From contig JBLMVJ010000035.1 of NCBI GenBank assembly GCA_050255815.1, positions 10,727 through 74,726 on the forward strand: a stretch of 64,000 nt of DNA, written 5' to 3'. Position numbers and translations under genes: made by a program. This document shows positions 3,376 through 38,078 of this stretch, one piece after another. This stretch comes from Candidatus Levyibacteriota bacterium (GTDB lineage Bacteria; Patescibacteriota; Microgenomatia; Levybacterales; GWA1-39-11). The notes beneath the pieces were generated by a model. That model was not told the origin of the DNA. It worked only from the letters and a program-made list of their open reading frames with translations, and searched no databases. How positions within the stretch are numbered: the first letter of the stretch is position 1; each line of letters starts with the position of its first letter.

Positions 3376-5523
3376 ATGGAAAGTAAAGATGTGCCGTCAA
3401 TAGTATCAAAGCTGCAGATAGGCGTGTTGTGCACCATGCTGGTATTATTCCCCTTAGCATTTATTCCTAACTCCACTGACTCATTTACCATGGGTAAGAG
3501 CCTAATCCTCATACTGGGGACTTCCCTTCTTATCCTGTTGTGGGCAATTGCATCTATATATAAGAAAGGCTTTGTCTATAAATCCAGCCCATTTAACCTT
3601 CCGGTTGCCCTTTTTGGCGTAGTGGTACTTATTTCCTCCCTGCTCTCCCGCAATATGTATGATTCTCTTGTTGCAGCTGTTCCCGTAGTCTTCTCTTGCG
3701 TATTGTACTTTACCATTTCTTATATGATAAGCAGCAGAAAAACACTTATTTTAGCTATTACCAGCCTTATTGCCGGCGGCGCACTGACTGCCCTTTTAAG
3801 TACCGCTTACTATCTGAAACTTTATTTCCTGCCTATTCCGGGTATTAATAACCAGTACTTTTCCCCGTTTGGGTCAGGCGTACAGGAAGCAATTTACCTG
3901 ATTGCCCTTCTCATGTTCCCGCTTTTCTCCCTATTAAGACAAACAAAGACCAGAAAGCTTACGGTTACGCAGGATTTCCTCATTGAAGCAGGTTTGGGAG
4001 GCGCACTTTTGATAGGGGTAATCTTTATTACCCTTTCCATCATTACTTCCCCAACCAAACCTATTATATTGCCATACACATATGGCTTGCAGATTGCAGC
4101 CGCTACTATTAGCCAGGATATCTCGCGCCTCTTTATCTCATTCCCATTTGGATCCGGCTTTGGCACGTTCTTAAATGACTTTGCCCGCTTCAGACTGCAG
4201 GAGCTGAACGCAAACACTACGTTTGCTACCGCCTACCCATCCTATTCATCATCTTTTGCCCTGGAGCTGATGACTACCACCGGCATCTTAGGCATCCTTT
4301 CTTACCTCTTTATAGTGTTTAAGGCCTTAAAAACCCGCATGAAAGACAGCAATCCATCTTACTTTGGCCTGGTTATCTTATTTATTGTCTCATTCTTCTT
4401 ACCGTTTGGCCTTCCAACTATTGCACTGGTCTTTATTCTTTTGGGAGTCTATTCATCATCCTTATTCCTGGCAAATGACAGGCGGGTACATAATACCAGC
4501 CTCTCACTGGTTGCCTTTGACCAGGGAATTATTTCTACAGAGGATGTGTTGAGGAATGAGCGGGTTAAGTCTGAGAGTATTATCCTGCCGGTTCTTATCA
4601 CTATCTTAGTGGTACTAATAGGAGGATTTGCTTCATTTATGATGGTACGCCTGGTAGATGCAGACACCAAAATGGTTTCCTCTTTGGTTGTACCTGCCGG
4701 TAAGAAGCTCACCATCCAGCAGCAATATGACTTGCAAAGAAATGCGGTAAATGAATTCCCTTATAAATCAGACTACCAGAGGACATTCTCCCAGCTTAAT
4801 ATGAACCTGGCTAACTCTATTGCTGCCAGCCTGCCAAAAGGCGCTACCCCATCAGCAGTTGTACAGCAAAGCGTCAACCAGCTCTTACAGCAATCAGTAA
4901 ATTCAGCCAGAAGCGCTGCTGATATAGCACCGCTTACTTCAACCAACTGGTCCAATCTGGCACAAATTTACCGGAACCTGATAGGCGTGGGCCAGGGAGC
5001 TGACCAGTTTGCCATTGCAGCCATGAACCAGGCAACACTGTTAGACCCAACCAATCCATTCTTAAGGCTGGACTACGGTGGTATTTATTACCAGTTAAGC
5101 CAGCTGGATGCAGCCCAAAACCAATTCCAGATTGCCATTAACCTGAAGCCTGACTTTGCTAATGCCTATTACAATCTGGGCCATGTGATAGAGTCCAAAG
5201 GAGACCTTTCTACCGCACTTTCTCTCTACCAGACTACCCTTTCCCTGGCCGGAAACAATCCAACAGATAAAAAGAAACTCAGTGATGAAATAGAAGCATT
5301 GAAGAAAAAGATTAATGAAACAGCAGCTACTCAACAGCAGCAGACACCGGTAAACCTGCAGACCAGCGCAGGCCAGCAGCAACCTATTGGCATTAACGCT
5401 CCTTCAGCTCAATTTCCAGCACCTAGCAGGCCGGTAAAACTTCCTCCACCTCCTGGTGCCAGCGCTTCTCCGGAACCGTCTCCTTCGGCTGCTCCCAGGC
5501 CTACGGCCACCCCCACACAATAA
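3376..5523 (+). CDS. Paralogous O-antigen ligase-like polytopic membrane protein with C-terminal TPR repeats and a Pro/Ala/Ser-rich tail
   Basis: 715 aa. Aligns by eye with the upstream gene (SPFNLP..LISxxLSRNMYDSL, FQIAINLKPDFANAYYNLGH). It starts 2 nt after the upstream stop. Confidence 0.6.
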   Translation: MESKDVPSIVSKLQIGVLCTMLVLFPLAFIPNSTDSFTMGKSLILILGTSLLILLWAIASIYKKGFVYKSSPFNLPVALFGVVVLISSLLSRNMYDSLVAAVPVVFSCVLYFTISYMISSRKTLILAITSLIAGGALTALLSTAYYLKLYFLPIPGINNQYFSPFGSGVQEAIYLIALLMFPLFSLLRQTKTRKLTVTQDFLIEAGLGGALLIGVIFITLSIITSPTKPIILPYTYGLQIAAATISQDISRLFISFPFGSGFGTFLNDFARFRLQELNANTTFATAYPSYSSSFALELMTTTGILGILSYLFIVFKALKTRMKDSNPSYFGLVILFIVSFFLPFGLPTIALVFILLGVYSSSLFLANDRRVHNTSLSLVAFDQGIISTEDVLRNERVKSESIILPVLITILVVLIGGFASFMMVRLVDADTKMVSSLVVPAGKKLTIQQQYDLQRNAVNEFPYKSDYQRTFSQLNMNLANSIAASLPKGATPSAVVQQSVNQLLQQSVNSARSAADIAPLTSTNWSNLAQIYRNLIGVGQGADQFAIAAMNQATLLDPTNPFLRLDYGGIYYQLSQLDAAQNQFQIAINLKPDFANAYYNLGHVIESKGDLSTALSLYQTTLSLAGNNPTDKKKLSDEIEALKKKINETAATQQQQTPVNLQTSAGQQQPIGINAPSAQFPAPSRPVKLPPPPGASASPEPSPSAAPRPTATPTQ

Positions 5524-5827: not shown

Positions 5828-6952
5828 CTATTGGAGGAAGGACAGAGGATTCTGGTTGCCGGAGGCTGAACGTACTTCAAAGTGTAAATGCGGTCCCGTA
5901 GTCCTACCGGTCACCCCTACCCATCCTACCACCGTCTTTCCGGCGGTTACCCTATCCCCTGCAGAAACACCCAAACCACTCATATGGGCATATAGCGTAG
6001 AATACCCATTATCACCGTGAATCACCACGTGGGTTCCATAGCCGTAATTCCAACCGCTGGGGTACGCAGCAGACACTACGCCGTTCTGTGCGGCTATAAT
6101 AGGCGTCCCAATAGGCGCGCCTAAGTCAACTCCCGGGTGGTACCAGTAGAATCCCTGGTTCAGGGTTCCTCTGATAGGCCAGGTAAACCCGGCGTCTGTT
6201 ACGGTAACCGGACCGCTTGCTATATACGTCTGCCTCACATACTGCGGACTTACCTGCTCTTCAGGCTTCACCCCATCAGGAACTATAATAATCTGACCGG
6301 TAACCAGTGAGAATGTCTGGGGATTTGCAAAATCGTTAAACGGAAAATCTACTATAGCCTGCGCGTTTACATTGTATTTTTTAGCTATGGAATAAATAGT
6401 ATCACCCTCTGCAACTTTATGGGAAATTCCGGTGACCGGCAGGATCTTGAGGTTATCGCCTATAGAAATGTCATCCCCGGAGAGGTCATTTGCCCACTTG
6501 ATAGTGTCTGAAGAAATTCCAAATTTAGAAGCTATAGTAGAAATGGTATCTCCTTTCTGCACGGTGTAGGTAATAACTTTGTCACGGACTCCTACCGTAT
6601 TTTGGGTTTGGAAGACGTTATCCTGGGAAAGCGTGAGGGAATCAGCCTGGGGGGACTGGGCAAAGGAAAGCATGCTTTTCTGGGTAGGCAGCAGCTGGGA
6701 ATCAGTAATAAACGGGGAAATCATAACCCCTACCGTCAAAATAACCATAATGCTGACATGCAGGAACATACGGTTTCTCCTGCCGCGCCTTATTAAAACG
6801 CCCTTTACTATATTGTTTTTCTGTTTTTCAAACTCATTGGAGATAAAAATAAACTTGTCCTGTATGTAAATTTTGAAGAAGATGGAGAAAGCTTTTGCTT
6901 CAGAAAGGATAAAACCAATACTTTTTCTAACCGTTTTCAACGTATTTCTCAT
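5828..6952 (-). CDS. LysM-domain M23 family metallopeptidase (peptidoglycan endopeptidase)
   Basis: Two LysM motifs (VQKGDTISTIASKFGIS and VAEGDTIYSIAKKYNV). C-terminal M23 signature HPGVDLGAP...GYGTHVVIHGDNGYSTLYAHM...GPHLHFEV. Confidence 0.85.
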   Translation of the reverse strand: MRNTLKTVRKSIGFILSEAKAFSIFFKIYIQDKFIFISNEFEKQKNNIVKGVLIRRGRRNRMFLHVSIMVILTVGVMISPFITDSQLLPTQKSMLSFAQSPQADSLTLSQDNVFQTQNTVGVRDKVITYTVQKGDTISTIASKFGISSDTIKWANDLSGDDISIGDNLKILPVTGISHKVAEGDTIYSIAKKYNVNAQAIVDFPFNDFANPQTFSLVTGQIIIVPDGVKPEEQVSPQYVRQTYIASGPVTVTDAGFTWPIRGTLNQGFYWYHPGVDLGAPIGTPIIAAQNGVVSAAYPSGWNYGYGTHVVIHGDNGYSTLYAHMSGLGVSAGDRVTAGKTVVGWVGVTGRTTGPHLHFEVRSASGNQNPLSFLQ

Positions 6953-7008
6953 AAGGGGAATGAAAGATACTGTACCAAAAAAGGGTTAACAAAACAAGGG
7001 TGCGGAGG

Positions 7009-8271
7009 CTAGTCCTTGCCTAAATTCATTAAGAATTCGTCATTAGTGTCTGTTTTGGCAAGCTTTTCAAGCAAAACCTCTGCCCGCTCATCCGGATTCA
7101 GGATGTCAATCATGCGGCGCATCATAACTACTTTCCTATACTTATCTTCAGGCATCAGAAGCTCTTCCTGACGTGTACCTGATTTTTCTACGTTTATAGC
7201 CGGGAAGATCCTGCGTTCAGCCAGCCTGCGGTCCAAATGCAGCTCCATATTACCGGTTCCTTTAAACTCTTCAAAAACCAGGTCATCCAGCCTGGATCCG
7301 GTCTCTACTAATGCGGTACCTATAATAGTAAGCGATCCTCCATCTTCACAGTTACGTGCGGCCCCAAAGAAACGCTTGGTTGGGTATAAAGCTGCCGGAT
7401 CATATCCTCCGGAAAGGGTACGACCTGAAGGCTCTATAGACAAGTTATAGGCACGGGCCAGCCTGGTAATAGAATCCAGAAGAATTACTACGTGTTTGCC
7501 GTTTTCTACTAAGCGTTTTGCTCTATCTAGGGCTATCTCAGCCACCCTGGTCTGGATCTCAGGAGACTCATCAAAATTGGAAGCTACCACGTCACCCTTC
7601 ACGGAACGCGCTATATCCGTCACCTCTTCAGGACGTTCTCCTATAAGAACCGCCATAAGATGAACATCCGGGAAGTTAGTGGTAATACCGGTGGCAACAT
7701 CCTTCAGGATAGTGGTTTTACCTGCTTTTGGCGGGGAAACTATCATACCGCGCTGTCCAAAACCAATAGGCGCCACCAGGTCAACTACACGGGTAGAAAG
7801 CGGATGTTTTTTAGTAGCCAAAGTAATTTGTGTATTAGGATAGATAGGAGTTAAGTCATCAAAGTAAGGGCGCTTGGTGGACTTTTCAGCCTCAATCCCG
7901 TTTACCTTGCTTATTTTAAGTAAACCATAATAGCGCTCATTATCCTTTGGCGGACGTCCCAGCCCCTCCACCAGGTCTCCCGGACGCAGCCAGAAGCGTC
8001 TGATCTGGGAAGCTGAGATGTAGATATCACGGTCTGATGGCCTGAATTTTGGCCTCAGGAAACCATGGCCTTCATGCTGGATATCTAAAATGCCGGAAAC
8101 TACCTCTCCGGACTCTTCACGCTCATAATCTGAACTGCCGTAGCCGCGCCTATCCTCAATAACCGGTTCTTCCCGGGCTGATACAGGCTCCCCTACCGGC
8201 TCTGAAGCTACAGGCTCTGCCTGACCCTCTTCAACAGGCTCCTTAATAGTTGTTTTACGTGCGACTGGCAT
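7009..8271 (-). CDS. rho: Transcription termination factor Rho
   Basis: Rho RNA-binding region (GFLRP...). Walker A GMIVSPPKAGKTTIL. Conserved C-terminal RecA-like domain. Confidence 0.9.
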   Translation of the reverse strand: MPVARKTTIKEPVEEGQAEPVASEPVGEPVSAREEPVIEDRRGYGSSDYEREESGEVVSGILDIQHEGHGFLRPKFRPSDRDIYISASQIRRFWLRPGDLVEGLGRPPKDNERYYGLLKISKVNGIEAEKSTKRPYFDDLTPIYPNTQITLATKKHPLSTRVVDLVAPIGFGQRGMIVSPPKAGKTTILKDVATGITTNFPDVHLMAVLIGERPEEVTDIARSVKGDVVASNFDESPEIQTRVAEIALDRAKRLVENGKHVVILLDSITRLARAYNLSIEPSGRTLSGGYDPAALYPTKRFFGAARNCEDGGSLTIIGTALVETGSRLDDLVFEEFKGTGNMELHLDRRLAERRIFPAINVEKSGTRQEELLMPEDKYRKVVMMRRMIDILNPDERAEVLLEKLAKTDTNDEFLMNLGKD

Positions 8272-11990: not shown

Positions 11991-12410
11991 CGCACGGCGA
12001 TCCCAGACTCCTCGGAGTTGCCGATGGAGAGTACCTTAACGTCACGAGCACCGCCTAACCGCTGTGATGATCGTGGTCCGCCTGGAAAAGGAGGTTGACG
12101 ATAACCCTCTGGGTTGTCAGGATCCTGAGCGCAAGCTTGAGGATCTCCTCCACTACGGCGGACAGACTGGACAGTTTATGTGTTTCACGCTCCTTTGAGT
12201 TTTGCATTCAAAGAAAGTCGTGTCACGGCAAAAACTGGTTCCAGTCAGGGTGAGAGACTCATTTATTGAGAATTGATTGGATTTTTTCCATCAAGTCTCT
12301 TTTGAGACTTTCTCCCACCTACATGCCTTTGCGTCTCCCTCACCATTATGGTGAGGGACTGATGAGTATTCTTTCGGAGAAATCTGAGGGAAACGAAACG
12401 CAAAAAAAAC

Positions 12411-13211
12411 ATGAGCATATTAAAATCTGTCCTTTTCTTTATCTTATTTTTGGCTGTTGCAGCCGGGGCTTTCTATGGGGTAGCTGAGCCCCAAAACACC
12501 CTTATTTCTTCCGTAGGCCCTATGCAGCTGACTGCCGGAGGTGCAGGACTCAGCCTGTTCCAGGGAAGCACCGGGCAGTATTATGATTTCTCACCATTTA
12601 AAGATACGGTAACCTTCCAGAACACTACCACTAACGCGCTGGTTACTGCCCAGGATATCCAGTCAACCGGTTATAAAACTTCCCTAAAAGTACCGTTCAT
12701 ACAGAATCTATGGGAAACCTTTCTCTTTTACACAGGAGCAGACACCCCTTCCATGAGGTTTCTGACCGGCAAAAACATCACCTACTCCTCTACCATTAAA
12801 GCCAACAAATTAATAGTCACCAGGACTATTCAGGGGGAGAAAAATCCTATTACAAAAACTGATATGACCATTACCTTTCATGCTATGGATTTTGTGTTTG
12901 ACCGGACAGGAAATTTATATAATTATGTAGACCCTGGAACACAGTCATTCTTTGAGCAGACTTATAACAAAACCTTGACACCTCAGCTGAATGACACTTC
13001 TATCACTGTTATGGGAAATATTGTTTTTATTTATAACCCTAAAATTGCCGCCGTTATGGCTATCCAAACCGTAGGGAACCAGACTATTACGGTGGACCGG
13101 AATGAGAAAGTAATCAGGATTTCTGAAACACCAAAGGTAAAAAACAATATCTACCAGGATTCTCTGCAGGTAACCGTTTTAAACACGCCAAAGGAGGCTT
13201 TTAACCTATGA
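12411..13211 (+). CDS. Hypothetical exported or membrane-anchored protein
   Basis: 266 aa. N-terminal hydrophobic signal/anchor (MSILKSVLFFILFLAVAAGAFYG). Coupled by a 4-nt overlap to the downstream polytopic membrane protein. Confidence 0.6.
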   Translation: MSILKSVLFFILFLAVAAGAFYGVAEPQNTLISSVGPMQLTAGGAGLSLFQGSTGQYYDFSPFKDTVTFQNTTTNALVTAQDIQSTGYKTSLKVPFIQNLWETFLFYTGADTPSMRFLTGKNITYSSTIKANKLIVTRTIQGEKNPITKTDMTITFHAMDFVFDRTGNLYNYVDPGTQSFFEQTYNKTLTPQLNDTSITVMGNIVFIYNPKIAAVMAIQTVGNQTITVDRNEKVIRISETPKVKNNIYQDSLQVTVLNTPKEAFNL

Positions 13212-33719: not shown

Positions 33720-34000
33720 TCAAGAGCAAAACCGGTAAGATCCGAATCTACTCGAATAGTTTGGGGTAACTTCTAGGCTACCCCATTCTTCTCGAATATT
33801 TCGAATTAACATTAACAAACACTAGCGCATTCGAATTGATTCGATTTAAATTCGAACCATTCGAGAATGATTTCTTAGAATCCACGCTATTTGGATCGAC
33901 CTATTAGTACAACTTCGCTGAAACAGTTACCTGTCTTACACGTGTTGCCTATCAACCTGATGGTCTCTCAGGGGTCTAAAAGAGATCTTATCTTAGGGTG

Positions 34001-34033
<33 letters not shown>

Positions 34034-34268
34034 CATGGAAATCTAGCTACCCAGCAGTGCACTTGTAAGTACAACTGGCACACCAGGGATTTCCTCACCC
34101 CAGTCCTCTCGTACTAGGGGCGACTCCCTTCAAATCTCAAACGGTTGTCCTGGATAGAGTCCGAACTGTCTTACGACGTTCTTAACCCAGCTCGCGTACC
34201 TTTTTAACTGGCGAACAGCCAGACGCTTGGGAGCTTCTCCACCCCCGCGCTAAGATGAGCCGACATCG

Positions 34269-34699
34269 CTGTCAATCCAATCAGTAATTAAGAAAGACTT
34301 AAAAACTTAAAACTGATGGTGATACTCTTGTTACCAAGAGCCTCTGACTATACCTTCATCCGCCAACTGGCGGAGCTAGTCGTATGATACAGATTATAAA
34401 TTTCTCTTTATGAGATGAATCCATATCTCACCCTCTCACCTATGCTGGTGAGGGGTTCAGTCGATAGGGTCCAAAAGAAATTTAAAATTCAGAAGTTAAA
34501 ATTCAGAATTAAATTCTTAATTCTGAAATCTGAATTCTTAACTCTATTTGAACCTCGGTATTACCCTCTTGTGTTCAGAAAGTAGGGTTTCACCGATTTG
34601 GACTAGTTATTTAAATTATTAGTACCTTGTTTTTTGACTCAAATACTAATAAATACAGGCAAGAGTATTACTACTCAGGCGCCCCGATATTTTCATATA
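34269..34699 (-). other. Group-I-intron-like insertion of 431 nt with no ORF in 23S, at the E. coli position equivalent to about 2500 (GGCACCU^CGAUGUCGGC)
   Basis: Exon junctions inferred by alignment to the recalled E. coli 23S. The 5' exon ends in U and the insert ends in G. It contains a GAATTC-rich AT tract and a CTCACC..GGTGAG hairpin. Confidence 0.5.
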
Positions 34700-34742
34700 A
34701 GGTGCCAAACCGCATCGTCGCTGTGGACGCTTGGATGCGATC

Positions 34743-34775
<33 letters not shown>

Positions 34776-35229
34776 AAGCTACGTCCCAACCACTAAGGAA
34801 CGCAGGATCACTAACACCTGCTTTCGCACCTGCTCGACTTGTAGGTCTCGCAGTCAAGCTGGCTTGTGCGTTTGCACAATACGCTCCGATTTCCGTCCGG
34901 AGTTAGCCAACCTTTGTACGCCTCCGTTGCACTTTAGGAGGCAACCTCCCCAGTTAAACTGCCCACCAGACACTGTCTTTTAGCCGTATTTTTATGCGGC
35001 ATTAAAGTAATGCTCACTCATCTTAAAGAGAGGTATTTCATTGATGACCGAAGTCTCCCTCCTATACTAAACAGTTAAAATAAGCTTGCAAATGTCAAGC
35101 TACAGTAAAGCTCCCGGGGTCTTTTTGTCCTAGGACAACCAGGCCGCGTCTTCACAGCCATCTCAATTTCGCCGTGTAAATGTTCAAGACAGTTACTCAG
35201 TCGTTCTACCTTTCGTGCGGGTCGGAACT

Positions 35230-35547
35230 CCATTGTTTTAATGTTCCAACATGGAACCTCACAGTCGCCTGTGAGATCGGACTATATCTTTCCCTTACCA
35301 AATTGGTGAGGGATCTAGCGTCTAGTCTCTGAGGGTTTTCCGATAAATCGGAATCTTCCCTGCTGATTGGCTCCACCAAGCAGATTTTTACTCTTACGAG
35401 TACTGTTGGATACTGAGCTGTTCCAGCAAATAGCTAGATTTTACACTCATTTAGGTTAACGATTGTGTTCTTACGTGACTGTTTTGCTTGTTCCTGATGT
35501 GTATCCCGATTAGATCGGGACTCGGGCAAGTTGATTTGACCCAAACC
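35230..35547 (-). other. Group-I-intron-like insertion of 318 nt with no ORF in 23S, at the E. coli position equivalent to about 1917 (GUCGGGU^AGUUCCGAC)
   Basis: Flanking exon sequence CCTTGTCGGGTT | AGTTCCGACC. The insert ends in G. It contains TCCCGATTAGATCGGGACT and TTCCGATAAATCGGAA hairpins. Confidence 0.5.
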
Positions 35548-37360
35548 AACCCGACAAGGAACTTCGCTACCATAGAACAGTTATAGTTACTGCTGCCGTT
35601 CACCGGAGCTTTAGAAAGCGGCTCCACCTTGCGGTTTCACCACCCACTATTGACTTACCGGCACTGGGCAGGTGTCAGCCCCTATACGTTACCTTTCGGT
35701 TTTGCAGGGACCTGTGTTTTAGATAAACAGTCGCTAAGTAATCTTTTGCTTAACCTGGATGTTACTCCAGGCAGGGCATCTCCCATAGGTTACGCCCAGC
35801 TTTTGTTGCCGAGTTCCTTGAACATTTGTCTCACGGTCGCCTTAGTCTACTCGACCAATCCACCTGTGTCGGTTATGCGGTACGGCAAAATATAGCACTC
35901 CTCACGAATCTTTTCCTGAAGACTGAAACTTACGATCCTCACCCTACTTTCTTGCGATTTCAGATTTGCATTCGCCACTTAATTAAACACTTTGACGGAT
36001 TTGCCCATCAAAACTATCTTATGGCTTGGACCCTGTTTACAGGGCGATCCTTTCCACTCTTGTCCATCCTTGAGTAATAACGCACTATACTCTGTAGCAG
36101 AATATTAACTGCTTGTCCATCCGGCTACCCCGCGCTTTATGACGGGCCACCGTTAGGAGCCGACTAACGCTGCGCTGACTTACATTGCGCAGCAAACCTT
36201 GGATTTTCGGCGGACGCCGTTCTCAGGCGTCATTCGCTACTCATGCCGGCATTCTCACTTGTAAACGCTCCACCATACCTTACAGTACAGCTTCGCTGCA
36301 TTTACGACGCTCCCCTACCACTTGCTCCGATAAATCGGAGTCAAATCTCCATCGTCGGTATTAAGCTTAATCCTCGATCATTTCCGGCGCCATTCTCCAA
36401 TGTCGACTAGTGAGCTGTTACGCTTTCTTTAAAGGATGGCTGCTTCTGAGCCAACCTCCTAGCTGTCTATGGAAAATGACTTCCTTATCAACTTAGCTTA
36501 AATTTAGAGACCTTAGATGGGAGTCTGGGCTGTTTCCCTTTAGACCCACGAGCTTAGCCCCGCAAGTCTGACTCTCTATTAAGTTTTTACGGTATTCGGA
36601 GTTTGATTGATCCTGAAAAGTTGCCTCTCCAGAGACCATTCAGTGCTCTACCCCCGTAAAAACATACAAAAGGCTATACCAAAATATATTTCGGGGAGAA
36701 CCAGCTATCTCCAGGTTCGTTTAGTATGTCACCCCTTACCACAAGTCGTCTCAGATCATTGCTGCGATCACGAGTTCGGGCCTTCCTCATCCTTTCGAAC
36801 AAGTTCACCCTGCTCATGGTAAGCTCACCTGGTTTCGGGTCTTTTGCAATGCGCATTTAGGTATCCCAGTTAGAGATCGCTTTCACTATGCCTCCCCCCT
36901 CACCTTTCCAACGAAAATTCCAACCTTTGTTTTAAATCGAGCTTGTTTCGATAATATTTCAAAGTGGTAATCCTCATTAGAATGGTGAGGGGTTAGACTG
37001 CGCAATACAAAAACTCACCGGCTCATTCTTCAATAGGCACGACGTTATACCCTTGCGGGCACTTCGTCTGCTTGTTAGCTAATAGTTTCAGTAACTCTTT
37101 CATTCCCCTCCCGGGGTGCTTTTCACCTTTCCCTCGCGGTACTAGTTCACTATCGGTAGATGTTGATATTTAGCTTTGGAGCGTGGTCGCCCCGGCTTCC
37201 CACAGGGTTTAATCGTACCCCATGGTACTCAGGAACAGGCAAGAAGTGAAAATCATTTCAAATACGGGACTATCACCCTCTTTGGTCTCTTTTTCCAAAA
37301 CGTTCTTCTATGATTTCCATTTGTGACTTCTTTTGCATTTAAGCAAGCCGTCCTACAACC

Positions 37361-37660
37361 CCCCTCACCTTTTTATCACTAACCTTTTTAAAAGTTCTTG
37401 CCAAGCTTTTGCGCGCTTCTTAAGCGCCTGCTCTCTTCTAAAAGCTAATTTATAAGAAGTATATGCTTCATAATAAATAAGCTCCCATGGCAAAAACTTT
37501 TTAGTATATATAGACTTTCCTTTATTATGGTCCGTAAATCGAGTTTTAAGATCTTTTGTTGAACCAATATAAAACTGGTCGAACTTTACACTCTTAAGAA
37601 TATACGTGTAGAACATAAGTCTATTATAGTTATTTAAGTTAGGAACAAAAAGGTGAGGGG
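37361..37660 (-). mobile_element. 300-nt insertion in 23S domain I, bounded by a perfect 14-bp inverted repeat (CCCCTCACCTTTTT / AAAAAGGTGAGGGG), encoding a GIY-YIG nuclease. An IVS-like or mini mobile element.
   Basis: Located between the conserved 23S blocks AGTAGCGGCGAGCGAACG and GGGTGATAGTCCCGTA. The terminal inverted repeats were read directly. Confidence 0.6.
37365..37616 (-). CDS. Standalone GIY-YIG nuclease domain protein (YhbQ/UPF0213-like, 83 aa) embedded in the 23S rRNA insertion
   Basis: YTYILKS..FYIGSTKDLKTRFTDHNKG..E has the GIY-YIG layout. Same strand as the rRNA. The stop codon lies inside the left inverted-repeat arm. Confidence 0.7.
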   Translation of the reverse strand: MFYTYILKSVKFDQFYIGSTKDLKTRFTDHNKGKSIYTKKFLPWELIYYEAYTSYKLAFRREQALKKRAKAWQELLKRLVIKR

Positions 37661-38078
37661 TTTGAGCTGTTCCGCGTTCGCTCGCCGCTACTGACGGAAT
37701 CTCTGTGATTTCTTTTCCTCGGACTACTTAGATGTTTCAGTTGGTCCGGTATCCCGCCGACTACTAATATATTAATCTTGCGACTAATAACTTCATAGCA
37801 GGCTCCCAGTTAAACTGGGGGGTTTCCCCATTCGGACACCACCGGATCATAATGTCTTCGGCCATTCCCCGGTGATTTTCGCGAGCCAGATGCGTCCTTC
37901 TTCGGTCAACACCTCCTAGGCATCCACTATTAGCATGAATCAAATAGCGTAGATTCTAAAAAACCAATTCATTAAAAACCATGCCTCGGCTTGAAACATG
38001 GAAAATCCGCCACCCGGCGGATTTTTTTAATCCTCCGTCCCGATTAGATCGGGACTTCGGCCTAGTTGTTTGTTTGTA

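Follow-up and report, generated by a model that had tools for sequence, protein, structure and literature searches.

The window analysed here is a stretch of 64,000 nt from a Candidatus Levyibacteriota bacterium (contig JBLMVJ010000035.1), and all window coordinates below are counted along its whole length. Its reverse strand carries a 23S ribosomal RNA (rRNA) gene in which a 300-nt cassette takes the place of helix 15. Between the arms of an inverted repeat, the cassette holds an open reading frame (ORF) for an 83-aa GIY-YIG nuclease. An earlier reading of the same letters, referred to below as the original prediction, had picked out this insertion; here we describe its anatomy, its relatives in other genomes and what these suggest about its nature. 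The following features make up the locus.

33883 to 37949, reverse strand: host 23S rRNA gene (Rfam LSU_rRNA_bacteria, 2126 bits; insertion map from alignments)
37361 to 37660, reverse strand: whole cassette, 300 nt, replacing the helix-15 stem-loop of 23S domain I (cmscan alignment and minimum free energy (MFE) fold)
37638 to 37660, reverse strand: 5' terminal arm, CCCCUCACCUUUUU (perfect 14 nt, 37647-37660) followed by GUUCCUAAC (covariation over 38 elements)
37361 to 37383, reverse strand: 3' terminal arm, GUUAGUGAU followed by AAAAAGGUGAGGGG (perfect 14 nt, 37361-37374)
37365 to 37616, reverse strand: GIY-YIG ORF, 83 aa, single domain (Pfam, homologs, AlphaFold, dN/dS)
37623 to 37628, reverse strand: TATAAT hexamer 6 nt upstream of the ATG, a possible -10 element

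A cassette in helix 15 of the 23S rRNA

The host 23S rRNA gene is 4067 nt long, compared with 2925 nt for the Rfam model, and the Rfam scan placed a 5S rRNA downstream and a tRNA upstream of it. Four insertions were mapped, two of them in helix 15 and helix 28 and the others after E. coli positions 1951 and 2500. Because a global MAFFT alignment against E. coli rrlH wrongly rendered the 5' insertion as a 342-nt leader, cmscan alignments were used for the helix-15 and helix-28 sites. In the cmscan alignment of the 5' part of the 23S, 281 nt remained unaligned within the apical loop of a hairpin at model positions 274-297; these bases come after GGCGAGCGAA...CAGCUCAAAC and before GGGUUGUAGGAC. 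We take the host hairpin to be helix 15, which Bacillus and Thermus possess and E. coli lacks. On the E. coli scale, blastn put the insertion site after position ~262-270, in agreement with the original prediction of a 300-nt insertion in domain I at about E. coli 250-300.

The two arms of the inverted repeat are exactly those claimed earlier as the bounds of the insertion: on the RNA strand, CCCCTCACCTTTTT at 37660-37647 pairs perfectly over 14 nt with AAAAAGGTGAGGGG at 37374-37361. With G.U pairs included, the terminal stem grows to 23-24 bp (37638-37660 with 37361-37383), and the outer 7 bp of the repeat line up with the consensus helix-15 stem. The MFE fold of the cassette in its 23S context has a 24-bp closing stem (z=-6.6), and the terminal stem of the window copy reads CCCCTCACC...GGTGAGGGG. 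The 3' arm also codes for the final residues of the ORF (..VIKR). As noticed before, the stop codon lies within a repeat arm, namely the TGA at 37365-37367 in the arm that is 3' on the RNA strand.

The ORF fills 252 of the 300 nt of the cassette. Only 48 nt are non-coding, which leaves no room for a group I ribozyme core. Consistent with this, Rfam scans at gathering threshold, both of the window and of this stretch, gave no Intron_gpI match at 37361-37660. The window protein scored 18.9 bits against the NCBIfam model grpIintron_endo (cutoff 56), and it stops at the catalytic domain, without a DNA-binding module. The Rfam scans and the grpIintron_endo score lead us to reject a group I intron as the identity of the helix-15 insertion, and the earlier judgement that the insertion is too small for such an intron is upheld.

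The reading frame is a conserved GIY-YIG nuclease gene

The Pfam GIY-YIG profile (PF01541) matched residues 1-71 of the predicted protein with E=1.7e-15 (57.5 bits, against a cutoff of 22.6 bits). An AlphaFold model built from a 58-sequence alignment reached a pLDDT of 95.4, with the secondary-structure order E-E-H-E-H-H, and its best PDB matches in Foldseek were UPF0213 BH0048, the Slx1 nuclease domain (TM 0.65-0.73) and the I-TevI catalytic domain. The features that define the GIY-YIG fold, a three-stranded sheet packed by helices together with conserved Tyr, Tyr, Arg and Glu residues, are thus all found. Across 58 homologs the invariant columns include Y3, Y5, Y16, G18, R26, H30, E50 and E62, and invariant Tyr, Arg, His and Glu positions are of the kind conserved in GIY-YIG nucleases.

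The protein database held 143 homologs, nearly all of 80-86 aa (family mode 83-86 aa), and almost all of the named ones come from Patescibacteria. The exact nuclease of the window was not found in the protein collection, where the best match was 82% identical, and a search of the window for a second copy of the nuclease gave none. Eight close copies from different hosts, seven in helix 15 and one in helix 98, each have exactly 83 codons; among them dN/dS ranges from 0.06 to 0.38, third-position changes dominate and synonymous sites are near saturation. Judged by these alignments and by the structural model, the ORF is a genuine GIY-YIG nuclease gene, as the original prediction had proposed, and it is under purifying selection. 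The original prediction had also named two findings that would speak against it, frameshifts in relatives and failure in profile searches, and neither was observed.

What did not hold was the description of the protein as YhbQ-like, which is valid at the superfamily level only. A profile of 128 family members gave 58-61 bits to proteins of the Ssn type, flanked by the hairpin known as SRM, and 35.6 bits to E. coli YhbQ. BLASTP with the window protein likewise gave 42.4 bits to an Ssn-type protein and 24.6 bits (26% identity) to E. coli YhbQ. The Ssn-type sequences compared (L181-L183; L numbers denote individual loci) are three alphaproteobacterial homologs with SRMs of the CGTCATCC(C/T)CG.. 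type near the gene, on both sides of it in L182 and L183. The window protein is 32% identical to that of L183 (E=1e-11), a measure of relatedness and not of clade membership. By sequence similarity, then, the window protein is nearer to the Ssn single-stranded DNA (ssDNA) nucleases than to YhbQ.

Upstream of the ATG, the TATAAT hexamer recurs at a distance of 6-10 nt in all helix-15 copies inspected (window, L001, L089, L090, L093 and L097). The spacer is AT-rich, and among RNA-hosted copies the hexamer occurs in 14 of 22, compared with 8 of 22 after shuffling. It may, as a weak suggestion, be the -10 element of a near-leaderless mRNA. A -35/-10 consensus scan found no full sigma-70 promoter within the cassette, nor was an intrinsic terminator found there.

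The inverted repeat is shared by a family of cassettes and appears to form a helix in RNA

We collected 179 loci encoding relatives of the nuclease from genome contigs, metagenome contigs and exact-protein look-ups, 170 of them with complete ORFs. An inverted repeat brackets 112 of these 170 ORFs, in elements that mostly measure 265-325 nt, the 5' arm preceding the ATG by 0-30 nt and the 3' arm adjoining or overlapping the stop codon. The termini follow the consensus YCCCNCAC...GTGNGGGR. Arm sequences are alike across host contexts, being CCCCTCACC in the window and in all helix-15 copies, besides TCCCGCACC, TCCCTCACC, CCCAGCAC and CCCCCACACC; a second arm type reads TCCCGTTAGAG or TCCCGTACGAA. 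A different subfamily, with the C-terminus ..IKSWKKR.., lies between tRNA genes (L029, L045, L051, L067, L166 and L177). Its flanks hold GGATCC-type palindromes and GTCCCGAT, and look somewhat nearer to SRM hairpins.

Arm positions 2, 3, 6, 7 and 8 are invariant or nearly so, and the remaining positions covary. In 38 distinct elements of the CAC type, chosen for 11 or more formed pairs among the outer 12, the 20-bp terminal stem is 96.6% paired, compared with 67.8% after shuffling. Both sides vary at 17 of the 20 pairs, and slid registers give 41-56% pairing. At the positions on which this choice did not act, pairing is at least 89% for positions 13-19 and 28 of 38 for position 20. These sequence comparisons indicate that the inverted repeat belongs to the cassette and not just to the host helix. 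The original prediction had treated the repeat as the boundary of the insertion; it does bound the insertion, but it is also the conserved terminal repeat of a cassette family that occurs outside rRNA as well.

The strand on which this stem is selected can be read from its mismatches, since an A.C combination on the sense strand corresponds to G.U on the opposite strand. In copies within rRNA or RNase P RNA, G.U outnumbered A.C by 37:1, compared with 16:9 elsewhere. This bias suggests that in RNA hosts the terminal stem acts as a helix at the RNA level, on the strand of the rRNA. The folded ends give stems of 22-24 bp that are more stable in the sense than in the antisense orientation (-38.6 vs -26.5 and -41.2 vs -29.5 kcal/mol). 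Copies beside protein genes have arms of 13-15 bp, without strand bias. Together, covariation and G.U bias support the earlier claim of a real long stem and suggest that this stem is under selection as RNA, transcribed from the rRNA strand.

Cassettes occupy many sites and carry signs of mobility

Classified by context, 138 distinct ORFs fall within 23S rRNA (12), in 16S rRNA or its 3' flank (11), in RNase P RNA (2), within 150 nt of a tRNA (30) or elsewhere (83). The 23S sites are helix 15, E. coli 540-553 (L035 and L021; presumably helix 25) and helix 98, where L101 has a 284-nt insertion that cmscan places in the loop at model positions 2817-2827. The 16S sites are E. coli 66-243, 439-507 and 1419-1487, plus the position just 3' of the 16S. 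Set against the flanks in E. coli and B. subtilis, the cassette appears to replace the hairpins of helices 6 and 17 at the first two of these, and we take the third to be the tip of helix 44. The RNase P RNA copies lie directly 5' of AGGAAAGUCCG, in L111 (1501-2072, 133 bits) and L031 (4001-4780, 85.5 bits, below the gathering score of 100), which we take to be the position of the P3 hairpin. The RNA-host sites examined have the cassette in the place of a native hairpin. Other contexts include tRNA 5' flanks and protein-gene starts.

Among the hosts, the nearest named same-site relative is a Levybacteria metagenome-assembled genome (MAG; L001), the others being metagenome contigs. L021 is a MAG contig of the Arenicellales (Gammaproteobacteria); its 16S shares 83% identity with the E. 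coli 16S, which means that the cassette family extends beyond the candidate phyla radiation (CPR). In this contig the nuclease gene at 23S 540-553 (3862-4442) is flanked by two ~100-nt rods, an arrangement closer to SRM-ssn-SRM, and a separate 1.2-kb insertion (5828-7032) lies between E. coli 1933 and 1952.

The relationship between cassettes and their hosts was compared in seven helix-15 hosts, where the identities of 23S flank and ORF did not correlate (r=0.15). The flanks of the window copy and L089 are 68% identical and their ORFs 82%; for L081 and L093 the figures are 93% and 78%, respectively. The helix-98 protein of L101 is 80-81% identical to those of the helix-15 copies L090 and L093, which nests it among the helix-15 copies. 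As ORF and host rRNA divergence do not correlate, these sequences suggest lateral spread, and repeated lateral entry at helix 15 fits them better than co-divergence with the host rRNA.

Among 84 elements that lie outside structured RNAs, 25 have direct repeats of at least 5 nt at their junctions, compared with 6.1 in permutations (maximum 12). The duplications vary in length from 4 to 13 nt, and the right-hand repeat restores the start codon of the host gene or the 5' end of the tRNA. At topA-like, murG-like and site-2-protease-like genes the repeats read ATGAA...ATGAA, and the TGA of the nuclease overlaps the downstream ATG. The window copy is among those without such a duplication, so the case for its mobility rests on comparison with its relatives.

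A number of individual loci show the same kind of junction. Beside protein genes (L074, L080, L058, L008, L034, L059 and others, near position 4000-4265) the 3' end of the cassette provides the downstream start codon (..GGGATGA..), while a relic ATGA(A) persists at the left end. In L023, L154 and L155 (~3985-4345) and in L140 the cassette lies directly 5' of tRNA-Arg or tRNA-Ile; the duplicated first nucleotides of the tRNA there amount to at least 9-10 nt (12-13 nt by eye), and the downstream tRNA stays intact. Thirteen loci hold two copies. Paired GIY-YIG mini-ORFs within a few kb were seen in L028, L044, L070, L072, L079, L107, L111, L003, L005 and L059, several of these pairs being tandem and ~80-170 nt apart.

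Hairpins with the same termini but no reading frame

The terminal motif is not limited to the cassette. In the window, CCCTCACC occurs 10 times against 1.9 expected, a count that no shuffle reached, and the following hairpins carry the motif or similar ends.

36896 to 36992, reverse strand: ORF-less rod hairpin, 97 nt, termini CCCCUCACC...GGUGAGGGG, replacing the tip of 23S helix 28
34431 to 34455, reverse strand: short motif hairpin, CCCCUCACC AGCAUA GGUGAGAGGG, in the 431-nt insertion after E. coli 2500
35292 to 35312, reverse strand: short motif hairpin, CCCUCACC..GGUAAGGG, in the group I intron after E. coli 1951
12337 to 12357, forward strand: minimal hairpin, CCCTCACC-ATTAT-GGTGAGGG, intergenic and distant from the rRNA operon

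The original prediction had reported the hairpin motif in both other 23S insertions and at an additional place. Both insertions and the intergenic copy do contain it; the coordinates given for the latter, 12343-12363, were wrong and should read 12337-12357. The 97-nt hairpin at 36896-36992 was missing from the earlier list. One pair of the 35292-35312 hairpin is a C.A mismatch on the RNA strand.

The 97-nt helix-28 element folds almost perfectly into a rod (-43.7 kcal/mol). In four relatives with the same helix-15 cassette, only a short native hairpin was found in helix 28, so that occupied and empty sites can be compared. The element looks like a non-autonomous relative of the cassette, similar to the intervening sequences (IVSs) of rRNA genes. 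Many other loci have rods with similar ends, 22-42 nt or ~95-137 nt long, and these frequently share an rRNA operon with a cassette. The ends of the rod and of the local nuclease cassette agreed in 14 of 20 comparisons (a count with some redundancy), compared with 6.0 in permutations. Visual comparison of the ~97-nt rods suggested no conserved interior of the kind that might mark a structured RNA family, the likeness being limited to the ends and the overall rod form. In shape and size, the ORF-less rods resemble the intervening sequences of the literature.

Several observations concern the surroundings of these hairpins. The insertion after E. coli 1951 (35231-35548, reverse strand) is an ORF-less group I intron of 318 nt, which Rfam matched with 80.5 bits at 35258-35526. 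The insertion after E. coli 2500 in domain V (34269-34699, reverse strand; 431 nt) gave a weak group I signal at 34324-34652 (24.4 bits, E=3.7e-4). In addition to its motif hairpin at 34431-34455, it holds a 30-nt AT-rich palindrome at 34483-34546, and it is probably a divergent intron with peripheral additions. In the pairwise alignment, the host 23S has gaps of ~20, 25 and 18 nt relative to E. coli, at 1680-1699, 2134-2158 and 2799-2816, respectively, the last gap lying approximately in the region of helix 98, the helix that hosts the cassette in L101. The intergenic hairpin and the letters that follow it (12337-12400, forward strand) lie upstream of an ORF at 12411-13211. Directly after the hairpin the sequence CTGATGAG...GGAAAC has letters reminiscent of a hammerhead core; for these hammerhead-like letters (CUGAUGAG...GAAAC), Rfam gave no such family at gathering threshold.

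A probable selfish cassette that may rebuild the helix it interrupts

We consider it most probable (roughly 0.6) that the insertion is an IVS-like selfish cassette, in which an Ssn-like nuclease gene is nested in its own hairpin. Such a unit of ~300 bp would consist of a gene for an 83-aa nuclease of the Ssn-like branch between its own terminal inverted repeats, and would be transcribed as part of the rRNA precursor. The arms would then pair into a ~24-bp helix that continues the host helix, so that the rest of domain I could fold as if it were uninterrupted. In other words, the terminal repeat would rebuild the interrupted host helix in RNA and thereby keep the insertion harmless. By analogy with classical 23S intervening sequences, RNase III probably cuts the terminal duplex, as the original prediction had plausibly proposed. 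Excision without religation would be the most likely outcome, leaving a fragmented 23S and releasing a small ORF-bearing RNA; the alternative is that the segment is retained as an expansion. The ORF is presumably translated. By analogy with Ssn, the nuclease probably spreads the cassette by recognising its own stem, or free copies of the hairpin, in ssDNA and cutting beside it. Host repair or recombination would afterwards copy the cassette into the break.

A number of points weigh against this picture. A GIY-YIG hydrolase alone cannot join DNA, which leaves the chemistry of insertion unexplained, and a duplication length of 4-13 nt fits no known transposase. The junction-repeat test found no target-site duplication in the window copy or in any RNA-host copy. 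The strict SRM pattern (HGTCWY..YYVSBRH..WNVSBRG..RNCYNB), which does find the controls L181-L183 and NTS itself, was present within 300 nt at 0 of 170 loci, and the gene is surrounded by one split hairpin, not by two flanking hairpins. The absence of the strict SRM and the single split hairpin are also the reasons why we call the protein Ssn-like and not a member of Ssn. The comparison of flanks and ORFs comprised seven taxa and pairwise MAFFT alignments only. Gathering loci by protein similarity means that the proportions of contexts are not unbiased, and the choice of elements for the covariation analysis left only stem positions 13-20 free of selection by us.

The strongest competing explanation is that helix 15 carries an old, immobile expansion that is inherited vertically, and that the GIY-YIG gene was domesticated by the host (for example, for YhbQ-like DNA repair) in a tolerant and highly transcribed spot. 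All close homologs that were traced (64-82% identity) occupy this one site in helix 15 and share their termini, the saturated synonymous sites speak for long persistence, and the strong purifying selection would suit a host function as much as a selfish one; the window copy, moreover, has no target duplication. Against it, the divergence of the ORF and that of the host 23S are uncorrelated, and 93%-identical flanks carry 78%-identical ORFs. In addition, the helix-98 copy is nested among the helix-15 proteins, and the same cassette with the same termini appears in 16S, in RNase P RNA, in tRNA flanks and at gene starts, with junction duplications. We therefore regard this explanation as unlikely.

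Somewhat less probable still is that the insertion stays in the mature 23S as a surface expansion segment and that the ORF is expressed from an internal DNA promoter, independently of rRNA processing. Helix 15 is a variable hairpin, taken above to be wholly absent from E. coli, and the TATAAT box at 6 nt from the ATG, found in every helix-15 copy inspected, could serve as part of a promoter. The consensus scan nevertheless found no -35/-10 promoter, and within the AT-rich spacer the enrichment of the -10-like hexamer is weak. A 24-bp duplex that ranges from perfect to wobble pairing is the type of target that RNase III cuts in known intervening sequences, and CPR rRNA-gene insertions are reported to be missing from transcripts (PMC11270868).

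Finally, it is highly improbable that the insertion is a degenerate group I intron with a classical homing endonuclease gene, spliced out of the RNA and spreading by double-strand cleavage of empty 23S alleles: although homing endonucleases of the GIY-YIG family are known, one bona fide and one weak group I intron lie in this 23S, and recurrent occupation of one site in divergent hosts resembles homing, the 48 non-ORF nt lack room for a ribozyme and match no intron model at gathering threshold, the protein is a bare catalytic domain scoring far below the grpIintron_endo cutoff, the site is a variable helix tip and not the conserved core, and all 30 GIY-YIG ORFs surveyed in CPR rRNA lie in insertions unlike any intron (PMC11270868).

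The selfish-cassette interpretation can be extended further, to a minimal autonomous mobile element whose nuclease lies in its own recognition hairpin, with the ORF-less rods as non-autonomous derivatives and with rRNA intervening sequences in general as products of this nuclease-driven family. The ORF-less rods are indistinguishable from classical 23S/16S intervening sequences. We put this broader view forward tentatively and at less than even odds. If it is true, the element would stay harmless by rebuilding the structure of its host, an RNA helix in rRNA and a start codon or tRNA 5' end elsewhere.

To our knowledge, the biological role of Ssn outside Neisseria is unknown, and how intervening sequences originate and spread has been an unsettled question since the 1990s. 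By itself, the window feature adds a further case to the class known from surveys of CPR rRNA genes. Its ~170 relatives, however, tie together three unconnected literatures, on rRNA intervening sequences, on GIY-YIG ORFs in CPR rRNA and on Ssn ssDNA nucleases. Should the link be true, it would offer a concrete mechanism for the origin and spread of intervening sequences, the cassettes would be among the smallest self-contained bacterial mobile elements, and they would supply many natural nuclease-hairpin pairs as possible ssDNA tools. In practical terms, the cassettes also disrupt gene models for rRNA and for RNase P RNA, and genuine protein genes come to lie in places that annotation pipelines do not inspect.

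Comparison with known systems

The nearest solved structures belong to UPF0213/YhbQ proteins by sequence (1ZG2 and 1YWL, E ~0.003-0.007) and to Slx1 by fold. The similarity to YhbQ is weak (26% identity and 24.6 bits to the E. coli protein), and we know of no cassette architecture for yhbQ.

Among mobile DNA, IS200/IS605 elements and REP/RAYT systems share with the cassettes a very small size, hairpin ends that are recognised in ssDNA and non-autonomous hairpin derivatives. They differ in having an HUH tyrosine transposase that joins DNA through a covalent intermediate, which a GIY-YIG hydrolase cannot do. Measured as DNA transposons, the cassettes have terminal inverted repeats but no transposase of the DDE, HUH, serine or tyrosine type, as their sole ORF is a GIY-YIG domain. 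A search of the open-access subset of the literature for prokaryotic GIY-YIG elements with terminal repeats and target duplications returned nothing relevant.

For the protein, Ssn offers a close parallel. Ssn proteins are single-domain GIY-YIG proteins (cd10448) that bind the NTS/SRM hairpin in ssDNA and cut beside it (PMC11893778), and their genes are flanked by NTS/SRM hairpins in an arrangement like that of an insertion sequence (Chenal et al., Nat Commun 2025, PMC11893778). Cleavage also works with the hairpin halves on separate strands, and the authors themselves liken Ssn to IS200/IS605-REP/RAYT (PMC11893778). Cassettes and ssn loci have in common a small single-domain GIY-YIG protein (<150 aa, here 83), an inverted hairpin-forming sequence around the gene and dispersed cognate hairpins; the SRM core TCCCCGCG..CGCGGGGA resembles the cassette termini TCCCGCAC..GTGCGGGA. 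In contrast, the strict SRM with its GTCAT leader is absent here, the gene lies within one split hairpin, and the cassette proteins are without the C-terminal W.R.WK..LIE..NP.W extension of the three SRM-flanked proteins. Site-specific cleavage of ssDNA beside the hairpin, and none of dsDNA or RNA, counts as a mark of the Ssn family. A preference for stable-RNA genes and an RNA-level stem are not described for Ssn in the available text of PMC11893778.

At the level of the locus, the window feature falls into a class that had been reported before. Tsurumaki et al. (J Bacteriol 2024, PMC11270868) tabulated 30 GIY-YIG ORFs in CPR rRNA insertions, 15 in 16S and 15 in 23S, none of them in introns and spread over several sites in poorly conserved helices; the insertion described here is an instance, with a Pfam GIY-YIG ORF, an rRNA location and no intron-model match. 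The same paper cites Brown et al. 2015 for the removal of CPR rRNA-gene insertions from transcripts (PMC11270868). With non-intron insertions of this kind catalogued earlier (Tsurumaki et al. 2024; Brown et al. 2015) and 30 cases tabulated, the bare finding was already known, and the original statement that such an insertion would be unusual in carrying a nuclease gene was too strong. On the whole, the observation made in the original prediction is confirmed and its interpretation partly supported. As far as the available text of PMC11270868 goes, the survey does not treat terminal repeats, stem covariation, ORF-less partners, copies outside rRNA or a relationship to Ssn. Within the open-access literature, the anatomy of the family, with a nuclease in its own hairpin, covarying termini, ORF-less partners and hosts that include several structured RNAs and gene starts, appears to be undescribed.

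Classical 23S intervening sequences, finally, provide a close parallel at the RNA level. They too are extended stem-loops that replace the tip of a variable helix, lack a ribozyme, occur sporadically and in some cases carry an ORF; those of Salmonella, Yersinia and Campylobacter sit at helices 25 and 45, and those of Leptospira and Coxiella encode a protein of the S23p family. A stem-loop without a ribozyme in the place of a variable-helix tip is what we find both in the helix-15 cassette and in the 97-nt helix-28 element, and the ORF-less partners of ~95-137 nt look just like the classical examples. The cassette differs from these in its helix-15 site, in encoding a nuclease instead of a four-helix S23p protein, and in termini that are conserved across host RNAs.

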